Part shown: piece by piece, positions 6,413 through 47,822 of the stretch | Numbering within the stretch: the stretch's first letter is position 1 | Layout of the letters: each line of letters begins with the position of its first letter | Source of the DNA: Alphaproteobacteria bacterium | GTDB taxonomy: Bacteria; Pseudomonadota; Alphaproteobacteria; UBA8366; GCA-2717185 | Direction: 5' to 3' | Assembly: GCA_047517345.1 (NCBI GenBank) | Contig: JAKZTB010000036.1 | Coordinates: 1,503 to 65,502, forward strand | Length of the DNA: 64,000 bases | The notes under the pieces: generated by a model | Databases searched by the model: none | What the model saw: only the letters and a program-made list of their open reading frames with translations | Told to the model about the DNA's origin: nothing | Position numbers and translations under genes: made by a program

Positions 6413-6766
6413 ATGCGAACGGCATTCGAGCGCCTCACCCGGCGTGCTGAATTCCGTCGTCTGACCCGGTCACGTCAGCGTTGTGCCACGCCGGGGCTCG
6501 TTCTCCAGACCATCGCCCAACCCGGCAGCGACGGCGAAGCGCGGGTCGGTTTGACGGCAAGCCGCCGCGTCGGCAACGCCGTTCGGCGAAATCGCGCAAG
6601 GCGGCGCTTGCGTGCGCTGGCGGAGAGCGTTATCCCTCTCCATGCCAAGCGCGGTCGCGACTATGTCCTCATCGCACGCTCGGCAACGGTGGACAGGCCC
6701 TACGCGGCACTTGTCGAAGATCTTGAAACCGCGATGAAGCGGCTCGACGTATGGCGGGACAACTGA
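6413..6766 (+). CDS. rnpA: ribonuclease P protein component
   Basis: 117-aa basic protein directly after rpmH. It carries the RnpA motif region (SRRVGNAVRRNRARRRLR). Confidence 0.9.
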   Translation: MRTAFERLTRRAEFRRLTRSRQRCATPGLVLQTIAQPGSDGEARVGLTASRRVGNAVRRNRARRRLRALAESVIPLHAKRGRDYVLIARSATVDRPYAALVEDLETAMKRLDVWRDN

Positions 6767-6767
6767 A

Positions 6768-7026
6768 ACCAACGAGCGCTGATAATGACCCCTGGAGACG
6801 GCTTGGCAAGGTTTTCCGCAAGGCGCGCGCGGCAAAGCGATGCGGTGTATCGTGAGGCGTGCGCGACGCTGTCCGAAAGCCTTGCCACGCCGCCCTTCGG
6901 GTCGCGCATGCGGCCCGGCGGAGCGTGTCGGAACGGCTTGACGATGCCCCACATCGCCGGCGCCGTCCCTCCTGCCCGACGAACCGCTTACGCGATCTCC
7001 ATGGGTCGTTATCAGCGCTCGTTGGT
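6768..7026. repeat. structured intergenic element of about 259 nt (copy 1), MITE-like or ncRNA-like, inverted relative to the copy at 15737-15992
   Basis: 30-nt terminal inverted repeat (6768-6797 vs 6997-7026, 2 mismatches). The internal cores match the reverse complement of 15737-15992. It fills the whole rnpA stop to yidD ATG spacer. Confidence 0.7.
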
Positions 7027-7329
7027 ATGAGAGTGCGTTCGATGTCTCCGGCGGTTGCCGCACTGCGGCTCACAATTCGCATCTATCAGGTCGCGATTTC
7101 GCCGTTTTTTCCGGCGCATTGCCGCTATTGGCCGAGCTGCTCGGCCTATGCGGGTCAGGCAATTGGGAAGCACGGGGCCGTGTCCGGCGGATGGCTGGCA
7201 ATCCGACGGATTGCCCGGTGCCATCCGTGGGGCGGATCGGGTTATGACCCGGTTCCAGGGGACAGTTGCGCGAACGGGCGTACGCAAAATGAGGTGACGG
7301 TGACCGAAGAAATGGAACAGCGCGTATGA
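7027..7329 (+). CDS. yidD: membrane protein insertion efficiency factor YidD
   Basis: ORF 6859..7329. The conserved YidD core ([46 protein letters not shown]) begins after the ATG at 7027 (alternative ATG at 7042). The stop overlaps the yidC ATG. Confidence 0.85.
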
Positions 7330-9185: not shown

Positions 9186-9832
9186 CCGGGGAATTCACGC
9201 CCGAGGAAATTGAAGCGGGACGCCACTTGTTCGCCCAGCAATGCGAATTCGTCATGGGCGTGGCAAACCTGTCAGGAATGCCGCCGGACGATCTGCCGGA
9301 AATTGCGTTTGCCGGCCGGTCCAACGTCGGAAAGTCGAGTCTCGTCAACGCGCTTACCGGTAGAAAGACCCTCGCCCGCACGAGCCACACGCCGGGCCGA
9401 ACGCAGCAACTCAACTTCTTCAACCTAGGCAGCCGGCTTATGCTGGTCGACCTGCCGGGATACGGTTACGCGCGCGCTTCTAAGAAAGATGTGAACGCCT
9501 GGTCCGCCGTGGTACGGGACTATCTTCGCGGCCGTGTCGGATTGCGCCGGATCTGCCTTCTGCTCGACAGCCGGCGCGGCGCCACGCGCAACGATCTGGA
9601 GATCATGGATCTTCTCGACAAGGCCGCCGTCGTATACCAGGTCGTGTTGACCAAGGGGGATAAGACGAAACAGGCGGCGCTTGAAACCTGCTTGTCGGAC
9701 CTCGGCGCGACCTTGAAATCCCGCGCGGCGGCGTTGCCGGAAATTGTCGTCACGAGTGCGCGCAAAGGACGCGGCGTGCCCGAACTGCGCGCGACGCTGC
9801 ACGCGCTGGCGAACCCCCGACCTTTGAGCTAG
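9182..9832 (+). CDS. engB: ribosome biogenesis GTP-binding protein YihA/EngB (start codon uncertain, probably CTG 9182)
   Basis: G1 motif AGRSNVGKSS, then DLPGYGY and TKGDK. The conserved N-terminal EAGRHLFAQQCEF lies upstream of the first post-yidC ATG (9254). The only in-frame options are CTG 9182 (GGGGGA 8 nt upstream) or ATG 9095 inside yidC. Confidence 0.85.
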   Translation: MTGEFTPEEIEAGRHLFAQQCEFVMGVANLSGMPPDDLPEIAFAGRSNVGKSSLVNALTGRKTLARTSHTPGRTQQLNFFNLGSRLMLVDLPGYGYARASKKDVNAWSAVVRDYLRGRVGLRRICLLLDSRRGATRNDLEIMDLLDKAAVVYQVVLTKGDKTKQAALETCLSDLGATLKSRAAALPEIVVTSARKGRGVPELRATLHALANPRPLS

Positions 9833-9880
9833 TGGACACAAACTAACGTATGGGTACCATATGTTAGTTTGTGTCCACTA
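9830..9880. repeat. 51-nt near-perfect palindrome (18-bp perfect arms, extendable to about 24 bp) between engB and argB
   Basis: tagtggacacaaactaac (9830-9847) and gttagtttgtgtccacta (9863-9880) are exact reverse complements. The centre gtatgggtaccatat is largely self-complementary. GC content is low for this genome. Confidence 0.85.
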
Positions 9881-9916
9881 GAGTCGCCCGCCCGCCCGCC
9901 GGACGAGGACTGTGAG

Positions 9917-14886: not shown

Positions 14887-15732
14887 ATGAGCCATGCCGA
14901 ACTGCAAAGCACGATCGACGAAGCCTGGGATGCTCGGGAAACCGTTTCCAGCGAAACCCATGGCGACGTTCGCGCGGCGGTGAATGTTGCGCTCGGTCTG
15001 ATGGATTCCGGCGAAGTGCGTGTCGCCGAAAAAACCGGCGGCAACTGGCACGTCAATCAGTGGCTCAAAAAGGCGGTTTTGCTGTCCTTTCGCCTCAACG
15101 AAATGACGACGATCGCGGGTGGACCCGGCGCGAACACGACCTGGTGGGACAAGGTCCCGTCCAAATTCGATGGCTGGACGGCAAGCGAGTTCGGCGATGC
15201 CGGGTTTCGGGCGGTACCCAGTTGCATCGTGCGCCATTCCGCCTATATCGCGCCCAACGTGGTGCTGATGCCGAGTTTCGTCAATCTCGGCGCCTATGTC
15301 GACGAAGGCACCATGGTCGACACCTGGGCGACGGTCGGATCCTGTGCCCAGATCGGCAAGAACTGCCATCTGTCCGGCGGTGTCGGGATCGGCGGCGTGC
15401 TCGAGCCGCTGCAGGCCGACCCCGTGATCATCGAGGACAATTGCTTCATTGGCGCGCGCTCGGAAGTGGTCGAAGGCGTCATCGTGGAAGAGGGCGCGGT
15501 ACTTGCAATGGGCTGTTTCATCAGCTCGTCGACCAAGATCGTCGACCGACAGACCGGTGAGATCCACCGCGGCCGCGTACCGGCCTATTCCGTAGTCGTG
15601 CCCGGTGCGTTGCCGGGAGCGCAAAGCCCGGACGGCGCGCCGACGCCGAGCCTCGCCTGTGTCGTCATCGTCAAGACGGTCGATGCGCAGACCCGGTCGA
15701 AGACTTCGATCAACGAACTTCTAAGGGATTAG
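14887..15732 (+). CDS. dapD: 2,3,4,5-tetrahydropyridine-2,6-dicarboxylate N-succinyltransferase
   Basis: 281 aa with the DapD N-terminal domain and hexapeptide-repeat core ([40 protein letters not shown]). Confidence 0.95.
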
Positions 15733-15736
15733 CACC

Positions 15737-15992
15737 CTCTACCGGGAATAGGAGATACGTATGATCGCTTGTCGCATTTTCTGGGTAGGAGGCGTCGCGC
15801 TGGCGATGCGGGGACATCGTCAAGCGTCGCCGACGCCCGCCAGAGGATGTGACAAGCGACCCGCAGGGCGTGCTCCCAGGTCCTTCGGATCGCGTCGCGA
15901 ACTCCTTGTGATGCTTCCAGCATCACGGCGGAACCCGCTCCTAACCGAAGGGCCTGAGAGCGCGTCATTCGCATCTCCTATTCCCGGTAGAG
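15737..15992. repeat. structured intergenic element of about 256 nt (copy 2), MITE-like or ncRNA-like
   Basis: Perfect 20-bp terminal inverted repeat (15737-15756 vs 15973-15992) that extends imperfectly to about 31 bp. It has several internal hairpins and is homologous to the reverse complement of 6768-7026. It fills the dapD-dapE spacer. Confidence 0.75.
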
Positions 15993-15993
15993 A

Positions 15994-17148
15994 ATGCTAA
16001 CCGTGCTCGATCCGGTCGCGTATGCGCGGGATCTGATCCGCTGCCCCAGCGTGACGCCGGAAGAAGGCGGCGCTCTTGAACTCCTGCAATCCACCTTGGA
16101 GGGCCTGGGGTTCAAGTGCCAGCGCCTGCTTTTCACCGAGGACGGCACGCCCGACGTCGACAATCTTTATGCGCGATTGGGCAATAGCGAGCCCAATTTC
16201 TGTTTCGCGGGCCATACCGACGTCGTGCCGGTCGGGGCGAAGGACGAATGGTCGGTCGACCCGTTCGCGGCGGAAATCAAAGACGGTGTGTTGTTCGGCC
16301 GCGGCGCCAGTGACATGAAGGGCGCCATCGCGGCGTTTGCCGCGGCGGTCCAGCGATTTCTCGAGGACGGTCCGCCGGACGGTTCGATCAGTTTCCTGAT
16401 CACCGGTGATGAAGAGGGTCCGTCGGTCAACGGCACGAAGAAGATGCTGCAGTGGATGGTCGAAAACGGCGAGAAGATGGATGTCTGCGTTGTCGGCGAG
16501 CCAACCAACCCGATGGCGTTGGGCGAGATGATGAAGATCGGCCGGCGTGGCAGCCTGAACGGCTGGCTCACCGTCAAGGGCGAGCAGGGCCACACCGCCT
16601 ATCCGCATTTGGCGGATAACCCGGCGCATCGTATCGTCTCCTTGCTGGAGGCTATTACGGCAAAATCGATAGACGACGGATCGGACTTTTTCCAACCGTC
16701 GACATTGCAGATTTCGACGATCGATATCGGCAATCCGACGACCAACGTCATCCCGGGCGAGGCGCGTGCGACCTTCAACATCCGCTTCAACGATTTGCAT
16801 TCTTCGGCAAGCTTGACCGAATGGTTGCACAAGACCTTCGATGCGGCCATCGGCGAGGGCGGACGCTACGAATTGGATGTCGTGGTCAGCGGCGAATCCT
16901 TCCTGATACCGCCAGGGCCGCTCAGCGATCTCGTCTCCGATGCTTGCGAGAAAGTTCTCGGTCAACGGCCGGAATTGAGTACCACGGGCGGGACGTCGGA
17001 TGCCCGATTTATAAAAGACTATTGTCCCGTCGCTGAATTCGGCCTGATCAGCCAGACGATGCATAAGGTCGACGAGCGCGCGGTCGTCGACGATATCGCC
17101 AAACTGTCTGAAATCTACGAGGCGGTCCTGCGCGGCTATTTCCAATGA
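15994..17148 (+). CDS. dapE: succinyl-diaminopimelate desuccinylase
   Basis: 384-aa M20 peptidase with DapE motifs ([33 protein letters not shown]). Confidence 0.95.
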
Positions 17149-47756: not shown

Positions 47757-47822
47757 CTAGTGTGATTCAGATCCTAAAATTCGTCGCATTCAATGCGACG
47801 AACTTCTGAATCATCACACTAG
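47757..47822. repeat. nested imperfect inverted repeat in the convergent K-channel / rpoD gap
   Basis: Inner perfect 10-bp hairpin (47780-47789 / 47793-47802) lies inside outer arms ctagtgtgattcaga / tctgaatcatcacactag. A related third copy of the arm is at 47689-47703. There is no U-tract. Confidence 0.6.

Follow-up and report, generated by a model that had tools for sequence, protein, structure and literature searches.

Nonautonomous DNA transposons (MITEs) of bacteria have been reviewed together with the Correia elements, which were originally described as 204 bp long, and transcripts that carry Correia or ERIC elements are cleaved by RNase III or RNase E (PMC10969869). Among DNA transposons that duplicate short targets, canonical Harbinger elements make 3-bp duplications and their relatives duplications of 0, 2, or 3 bp, and the prokaryotic IS5 family groups with the Harbinger transposons (PMC12730594). 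The repeat family described here resembles bacterial MITEs in being small and noncoding, with terminal repeats, a short target duplication, and many mostly intergenic copies, and like them it shows nested insertions and breaks assemblies. It differs from them in an interior that is better conserved than its ends, in two long covarying hairpins, and in that no parent IS was found. Ordinary MITEs show the reverse pattern, with ends better conserved than interiors.

With the Correia/NEMIS elements of Neisseria the family shares the condition of an orphan MITE, having no known transposase, as well as insertion at gene junctions, cotranscription, terminal repeats of ~26 to 33 bp, and a long terminal stem that is an expected RNase III substrate; reported inversion variants of Correia are comparable to arm flips seen in two of our loci (L020 and L115). 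Correia elements are 100 to 155 bp long and duplicate TA. Unlike them, our type A copies duplicate 3 bp (T-N-A), and the family appears distinct in its sequence and differs in its host range, which is marine Alphaproteobacteria, and in its two-hairpin body. The ERIC/IRU and RUP/BOX repeats of enterobacteria and streptococci are also imperfect palindromes in transcribed intergenic regions and can alter mRNA stability, but they have no sequence relationship to the family, differ from it in size and target, and lack class-swapped terminal repeats.

The locus analyzed here lies in a 64,000-nucleotide stretch of DNA, called the window throughout, from an uncultured marine alphaproteobacterium; ENA metagenome contigs and the MAG GCA_047514495.1 carry genes for an identical YidC. 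Between rnpA and yidD the window carries a 261-bp element, e1, and between dapD and dapE a second copy, e2 (Table 1). We hold with considerable confidence that the rnpA-yidD spacer is an old and probably immobile copy of a MITE from an uncatalogued family: it is small and noncoding, it has conserved terminal repeats and a target duplication, it belongs to a dispersed multicopy set, and the orthologous sites of relatives are empty.

Table 1. Coordinates of the elements and flanking genes in the window
Feature	Position	Strand	Description
rnpA (RNase P protein)	6413..6766	+	ORF; tblastn to 70+ relatives
Left target-site duplication	6764..6766		TGA; flanks ACAACTGA / AACCAA...TTGGTA / TGAGAGTG
e1, rnpA-yidD element	6767..7027	+ (by family HMM)	261 bp
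Left terminal inverted repeat, type A	6767..6798		AACCAACGAGCGCTGATAATGACCCCTGGAGA; first base mutated T>A relative to family consensus TACC...
Hairpin arm Ua (unit U, + sense)	6799..6892	+	tip GCGATGCGGTGTATCG, 3' motif GCGCGACGCTGTCCGAAAG; folds; nhmmer
Central mini-hairpin linking both arms	6893..6901		CCCTTCGGG; folds; helix 5
Hairpin arm Ub (unit U, - sense)	6902..6995	-	contains CTTGACGATGCCCCACATCGCC and CCTCCTGCCC
Right terminal inverted repeat, type A	6996..7027		...TCTCCATGGGTCGTTATCAGCGCTCGTTGGTA
Right target-site duplication	7028..7030		TGA; perfect match to left TGA
yidD	7042..7329	+	conserved start ATG 7042 (MSPAVAAL...); NCBI MAG call; L006 homologue; tblastn
Body-less type C terminal-repeat pair	9829..9881		53 nt, between engB and argB; overlaps engB stop TAG 9830-9832
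e2, dapD-dapE element	15729..16000	-	Ua-junction-Ub body in opposite orientation; type B repeat (AGCACCCTCTACCGGGAATAGGAGATACGTATGA); TA on both flanks

The boundaries of e1 were set by aligning the window both to the junctions of relatives and to dispersed copies of the family. The junction reads ...GACAAC TGA / AACCAACG...(261 bp)...CGTTGGTA / TGA GAGTGCGTTCG ATG, with the rnpA stop codon forming the left copy of the target-site duplication. A preliminary description had correctly recognized an element of ~260 nt at this place and had put its limits at 6768 and 7026 (259 nt); the TGA/TGA flanks extend these to 6767 and 7027. The terminal arms it reported, 6768-6797 and 6997-7026, do pair over 30 nt when read directly, with one T-G and one C-T position. 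The insertion point is the rnpA stop codon itself, and both reading frames and the native 11-nt spacer were left intact. The end of RnpA (...VWRDN*) aligns with ...VWRE*, ...VWRNEK*, and ...VWRDD* in L006, L005, and L007, respectively.

Comparison with relatives was based on 80 loci whose YidC proteins are 51 to 77% identical to that of the window. rnpA and yidD are neighbors in every locus that spans the junction, and the distance from the rnpA stop to the YidD core has a median of 41 nt and a maximum of 111 nt in 73 relatives, versus 308 nt here; the excess over the median is close to 264 nt, the combined length of the 261-bp element and the 3-bp duplication. In L006, which is among the closest relatives, the junction reads ...GTATGGCGGGAATAA-TAACTGTGCGTTCTTTTCT-ATG, with L005 and L007 alike, and stems and core are both absent from the rnpA-yidD junction sequences of these three. 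The earlier expectation that this junction is normally short is thereby confirmed, and the long spacer is not shared by relatives.

These boundaries change the reading of the downstream gene. The conserved yidD start lies 15 nt past the end of e1; it is the start used in the NCBI annotation of the MAG, where YidD (L004, 3082-3369; 95 aa; PF01809) maps to 7042-7329, and the YidD homologue of L006 begins at the equivalent Met (MTPAAVVL). The in-frame ATG at 7027-7029, on which the element had been thought to end and yidD to begin, is fortuitous, being composed of the terminal A of e1 (A7027) and the TG of the right TGA. Sequestration by the 3' arm of the nucleotides preceding the yidD start had been proposed with this ATG in mind, and it is not supported, as the start is 15 nt beyond the element. 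That no Shine-Dalgarno sequence is evident for yidD was correctly observed, and this is true of L006 as well.

The element has no coding capacity, and only spurious high-GC ORFs cross its 261 bp. Three ENA metagenome contigs have gene calls for neither rnpA nor yidD; annotated instead is a spurious ORF of 197 aa that runs antisense over rnpA and e1 (L001:9145-9738; 6470-7063 of the window on the minus strand), an artifact caused by the e1 insertion.

The anatomy of e1 is best described by reference to its family. The 261-bp unit has a 32-nt repeat at each end and, between the repeats, two imperfect hairpins of ~94 nt, Ua and Ub, separated by a mini-hairpin of 9 nt; Ub is a diverged inverted copy of Ua. 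Each arm was recognized by eye as a version of one ~94-nt hairpin unit, U, which in the (+) sense runs stem, yCGG-kTAGGAGs, GCGATGyGGnGCATCG tip, yCGCGACGnnnTCCGAmrG, stem. Searched with nhmmer, Ua matches the U HMM with an E value of 2e-18 and shows covariation in helices 2 to 4, and Ub, with helices 6 and 7, matches it on the minus strand with an E value of 1.4e-16. The two arms are distinct and conserved subtypes, Ua starting with CGGC and Ub starting with TCGC and carrying TTGACGATG, which gives the quasi-palindromic element a defined polarity; family copies score 100 to 146 bits on their best strand versus 20 to 40 bits on the opposite strand. Either strand of e1 folds into a terminal stem with the two ~94-nt hairpins and the 9-nt mini-hairpin, with energies of -163 and -160 kcal/mol on the two strands (z = -9 and -10) that no shuffle matched. 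An inverted-repeat search returned 6763-6798 and 6996-7031 as arms of 36 nt that are 89% complementary.

The unit is dispersed beyond the window. A search with an HMM built on the core of e1 and e2 brought up a third copy, in L020, a locus whose YidC is only 56% identical, and this copy has the terminal stem sequence of e1. A pattern derived from U matches e1, e2, and both arms of the L020 copy and nothing else locally; within the 64-kb window, blastn, nhmmer, and inverted-repeat scans returned only e1, e2, and the body-less pair. One exact-motif scan of a 185,579-species genome collection gave at least 118 stretches. All but one of the matches listed come from MAGs labeled as Rhodospirillales, Rhodospirillaceae, Kiloniellales and Kiloniellaceae, Thalassospiraceae, Magnetovibrio, Denitrobaculum, and, once, Rhizobiaceae, with further listed matches in MAGs labeled unclassified Alphaproteobacteria or "Proteobacteria." The one exception among the matches listed, L088, is labeled a delta proteobacterium and has no match to the hairpin-unit HMM; it may be a chance match to the pattern. 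Also among the matches listed, tens occur in single MAGs (such as B35T3L14, B18D1T1, and B1T1B11), many at contig ends, and copies inside high-copy MAGs are 94 to 95% identical to one another, as expected of bursts. A literature search of partial coverage returned no MITE described from these taxa or with these features, and this abundant family is apparently undescribed.

Copies across the family follow one plan. Among 142 clusters of U found by nhmmer in the 118 listed stretches, the order is "+-" in 72 and "-+" in none, and direct arrangement, which represents an arm flip as in L020 and L115, is rare. The length of copies has its mode at 261 bp (36 pairs) and ranges from 249 to 378 bp, and the canonical 261-bp copy is bounded by the 32-nt terminal inverted repeat TACCAAGGAGCGCTGATAATGACCCATAGAGA ... 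TCTCTATGGGTCATTATCAGCGCTCCTTGGTA, present at both ends of ~48 copies. The identity of e1 to the family consensus is 83%, and against an HMM of 38 family members e1 scores 238.8 bits on the plus strand (E = 2e-71) and 66.5 bits on the minus strand. Its mutated first base and mismatched arms count against the MITE reading as far as the mobility of e1 is concerned.

Several copies depart from the canonical form. In L020:3118-3378 and L115:4118-4378, one arm is inverted relative to the canonical arrangement and the units are direct, which recalls the flip/flop of palindromic arms. Variants of 315 to 378 bp (L137:4383-4697, L192:5117-5431, L175:973-1290, and L174:4110-4487) carry a nested 54- to 57-nt insert (CCGGGGCCACGGGGTGTCCCCGTTTTTTTATAACGGGGGGCGCCCCCGCAACCCCCGG) in a hairpin arm, and L174 carries it in both arms; the insert looks like a second, smaller repeat, with two GC hairpins flanking a T-run. 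A 159-bp single-arm variant, L145:3998-4156, has type A terminal repeats around the Ua hairpin alone.

The flanks of these copies speak to how they arrived. Identical 3-nt flanks are present in 29 of 48 type A copies (TTA, 16; TAA, 10; TCA, 2; TGA, 1), and identical 4-nt or 5-nt flanks in 0 of the 48. Such a pattern is characteristic of transposition, by cutting or by copying, in which 3 bp of a T-N-A target are duplicated. A TA duplication of the IS630/mariner type was considered for type A and rejected, as the identical flanks are 3 nt long. A transposase acting in trans would insert the element at T-N-A, mostly TTA or TAA, and duplicate 3 bp. e1 landed on the rnpA TGA, with the duplication rebuilding the stop codon on the left and leaving the native 11-nt spacer and the start at 7042 on the right. 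The DNA-level mobile or insertional origin put forward in the preliminary description is supported by the TGA/TGA duplication, the dispersal of the family, and the empty junctions of relatives. That description was also right that orientation relative to the host operon is not fixed: e1 is on the plus strand and e2 on the minus strand, and copies occupying stop codons are oriented one way relative to the gene whose stop is occupied in 8 cases and the other way in 5.

Targeting of stop codons was also considered. Of 49 copies, 15 occupy the stop codon of an ORF 80 or more codons long, versus 18% of all TTA/TAA sites, and we rejected stop-codon targeting since this enrichment is too weak in high-GC DNA with its spurious ORFs. 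All three elements of the window (e1, e2, and the 9829-9881 palindrome) are placed precisely at the stop codon of the gene that precedes them.

The second copy brings out what is unusual about the family. By blastn in the window, e1 and e2 align on opposite strands at 69% identity over 124 nt (E = 6e-7), and e2 scores 89.8 bits on the minus strand and 28.5 on the plus strand against the 38-member family HMM; the similarity to 15737-15992 first noted in the preliminary description is significant and is on the opposite strand. In a relative, L008, the dapD-dapE junction reads GACTGA-CCCG-ATG, about 4 to 11 nt, which makes e2 a lineage-specific insertion at a stop codon as well. The ATG called as the dapE start, 15994, falls within the right terminal repeat of e2, and the L008 homologue has its start aligned to GTG 16003 (window 15994-16005); from this alignment, the annotated N terminus of dapE (MLT-) was probably contributed by e2.

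The body of e2 is 69% identical to the type A consensus, and its terminal repeat is 44% identical to the type A repeat, versus ~52% for shuffled sequence, in line with the earlier statement that the outer stems are unrelated between copies. The type B repeat and body recur in L089, L113, L097, and L144, and other repeat classes are found in L122 and L017 (type C), in L195 (type D), and in L106, L167, L188, and L139. At least eight types of terminal repeat, all about 34 nt, are joined to one common body; all start with AGTnc or ATACC and end with TAyrGA, and bodies are 68 to 75% identical across classes whose terminal repeats are unrelated. Outside type A, TA was read on both sides of 5 of 11 copies, e2 included, a pattern in which the length of the duplication is ambiguous; the sister classes possibly duplicate a 2-bp TA. 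Conservation of the interior over unrelated classes of terminal repeat, together with the covarying hairpins discussed below, is what makes this family unusual, and the better conservation of body than of terminal repeats across classes counts against the MITE reading.

The palindrome at 9829-9881 bears directly on this point. It is near perfect, with 25-nt arms and TA on both flanks, it matches the outer type C stems of L017:643-817 and L122:258-525, and its center is GGTACC, a palindromic 6-mer also present in both arms of the full type C copy of L017. A deletion between two GGTACC sites would remove the inner stem and the body. The palindrome had been taken for a vacant target; as it matches the outer repeat of another class, it is more simply interpreted as a body-less deletion derivative. 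Insertion of the core into preexisting host palindromes, as had been suggested, is not supported either, since the 32-nt repeat travels with the body in ~48 copies from many genomes and relatives lack both the stems and the core; with the target duplication lying outside the stems, this makes the stems part of the mobile unit. Elsewhere in the window, at 47770-47812, there is a short AT-rich palindrome (GATCCTAAAATTCGTCGCATT a AATGCGACGAACTTCTGAATC) with 21-nt arms that are 81% complementary; its sequence is unrelated to the element.

Nested insertion can be recast by moving it from host palindromes to mobile ones. A unit of ~215 bp, comprising the inner stem and the two hairpins, would then be a mobile or functional module inserted into, or captured by, palindromic repeat-only elements such as 9829-9881. 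The contrast between the bodies and the outer ~22 to 25 bp, which are at shuffle level, would be explained in this way, as would the variety of terminal repeats around a common body and the fact that 9829-9881 ends almost exactly at the limit of the class-specific part of the stem. Yet no copy of the body without terminal repeats occurs among the copies examined, and no direct repeat surrounds the body inside the stems, where the junctions are inverted (GA...TC). Moreover, the presence of GGTACC in both full type C arms allows a simple deletion to explain 9829-9881, and the first and last bases common to all classes are those of diverged homologues. We consider such a module improbable and retain the MITE insertion as the explanation of e1.

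Whether the hairpins are themselves under constraint was addressed with 38 oriented type A copies, a set in which relatedness among copies inflates such statistics. Pairing cells are 96.2% paired in these copies, compared to 87.9% in shuffles and 34 to 42% when partners are slid, and pairs changed on both sides number 52 of 98, against 25 +/- 2.6 in shuffles and 14 to 23 when slid. The covariation score is 0.253, versus 0.10 and 0.05 in the two controls, and covariation is not confined to the terminal stem: in the arms it involves 10 of 20 pairs of helix 2 and 18 of 26 pairs of helix 6. Between e1 and e2, 38 predicted pairs stay paired despite changes on both sides. Covariation above controls counts against the MITE reading, and it suggests a structural constraint, which would not be expected if a deleted IS had simply decayed. 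Even without selection, however, template switching can maintain the symmetry of long DNA palindromes.

These observations raise the idea that the two-hairpin body is a structure-constrained module shared by at least eight unrelated classes of terminal repeat, presumably with one transposase each, an idea that we consider rather unlikely. If it were true, the hairpins would be needed in cis for mobilization, for example as folded single-stranded DNA or as subterminal binding sites around the GCGATGC-N3-GCATCGC tips, or would act at the RNA level as an "insulator" that eases insertion at operon junctions. The family would then be a modular MITE superfamily, conserved in its interior and not at its ends.

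As the preliminary description proposed, e1 could instead function mainly as RNA, either as a structured cis-acting regulator or as a small RNA with its own transcription, and so gate the translation or processing of yidD, and in the case of e2 of dapE. The folds of e1 and e2 are very stable (z = -9 to -14), covariation is strong, motifs predicted to be unpaired are conserved (TAGGAG, CGCGACG..TCCGAAAG, and TTGACGATG), and Correia and ERIC transcripts offer a precedent in being cut by RNase III or RNase E (PMC10969869). The sole promoter-like match (TTGCCA-16-CATTAT, 6809-6782) is weak; it lies on the minus strand, antisense, and is directed outward from the Ua end. Against this, the element occurs in either orientation relative to flanking genes, and the split of 8 versus 5 on stop codons argues against RNA-level selection. 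Mismatches of the wobble type are G-T in 197 cases and A-C in 168; this lack of strand bias is expected of a DNA palindrome, or of folding on either strand, more than of an RNA made from one strand, and no signature of such an RNA was found in these counts. Target duplications flank the element, 73 relatives lack it at the junction, and the structure ends 15 nt short of the conserved yidD start. With Rfam 15, only a tRNA in the window reaches the gathering threshold and nothing over e1 does so, and a permissive search over e1 gave plant miRNA-precursor models as the best matches, at 20 to 23 bits compared to gathering thresholds of 168 to 268. A dedicated RNA is thus highly unlikely, and any effect at the RNA level would be a by-product of the insertion rather than the reason the sequence exists.

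An architecture composed wholly of hairpins, in which both strands fold equally well and for which the search returned no DDE parent, could also recall palindromes of the REP/REPIN or IS200/IS605 type, which a tyrosine (HUH) transposase mobilizes in single-stranded form without duplicating the target. REP/REPIN sequences are characterized by the absence of a target duplication, by short REP hairpins with a conserved 5' tetranucleotide, and by a linked RAYT gene. In the present family, 29 of 48 copies are flanked by direct duplications of 3 bp, the terminal inverted repeats are long (32 nt) and conserved, and neither a RAYT nor a TnpA gene lies beside any of the copies examined. We regard this origin as extremely improbable.

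From the duplication alone, we infer mobilization by a DDE transposase related to those of the IS5 family and PIF/Harbinger. Type A copies share the 3-bp TTA/TAA duplication with the PIF/Harbinger "Tourist" MITEs and with the IS5 family (IS1031, IS427, and ISL2 groups), of which the IS1031 group, according to ISfinder, prefers T-N-A targets. The TACC.../AGTAC... termini found here, none of which has a linked transposase, are unlike the GAG.../GG... ends of the IS5-family element seen in this species and unlike those of family members in ISfinder.

The search for a parent did not yield one, which counts against the MITE reading. No autonomous element with matching terminal repeats was found in ~750 kb of element-rich loci, in PLSDB plasmids searched with the consensus, or in IMG/VR viral contigs searched with the terminal-repeat pattern; no pair of type A repeats more than 400 bp apart encloses a parent in 118 loci; and the ORFs beside the half-elements of L117, L121, and L148 are ordinary housekeeping genes. 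In one strain variant of the same species, just upstream of the region of the window, L002:300-1400 is an IS5-family IS (DUF4096 plus DDE_Tnp_1) with ends GAGTCCGTCCGG... and TTA on both sides; part of its right end is repeated ahead of it, so that the two are in tandem or nested. As the only IS5-family IS seen in the species and the only candidate for terminal repeats matching a known member of the IS5 family or PIF/Harbinger, it was rejected as the parent because its ends are unrelated to the type A termini, and this too counts against the MITE reading.

What e1 does to its host can be considered in light of its position. It would now lie within an rpmH-rnpA-yidD-yidC transcript as a long double-stranded hairpin of the RNase III type, and by analogy with Correia its 32-bp stem is a plausible substrate of that enzyme. 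In sequence, e1 puts the yidD start 275 nt from the rnpA stop, and the terminal stem would keep the two spatially close. yidD probably depends on proximity to the rnpA stop, and for the host e1 is most likely neutral or mildly polar in its consequences, not an evolved regulatory gate.

The odd 260-nt spacer in one of the most conserved bacterial junctions is thus, in our reading, a transposon scar and not a leader or riboswitch. The yidD start is corrected to 7042, and the dapE start is probably to be corrected likewise. In marine Rhodospirillales and Kiloniellales, the same repeat family breaks up MAG assemblies. Should the conserved two-hairpin body turn out to be needed for the element to move, or for its insertions between operon genes to be tolerated, the family would be useful for studying the persistence of MITEs within transcribed operons.
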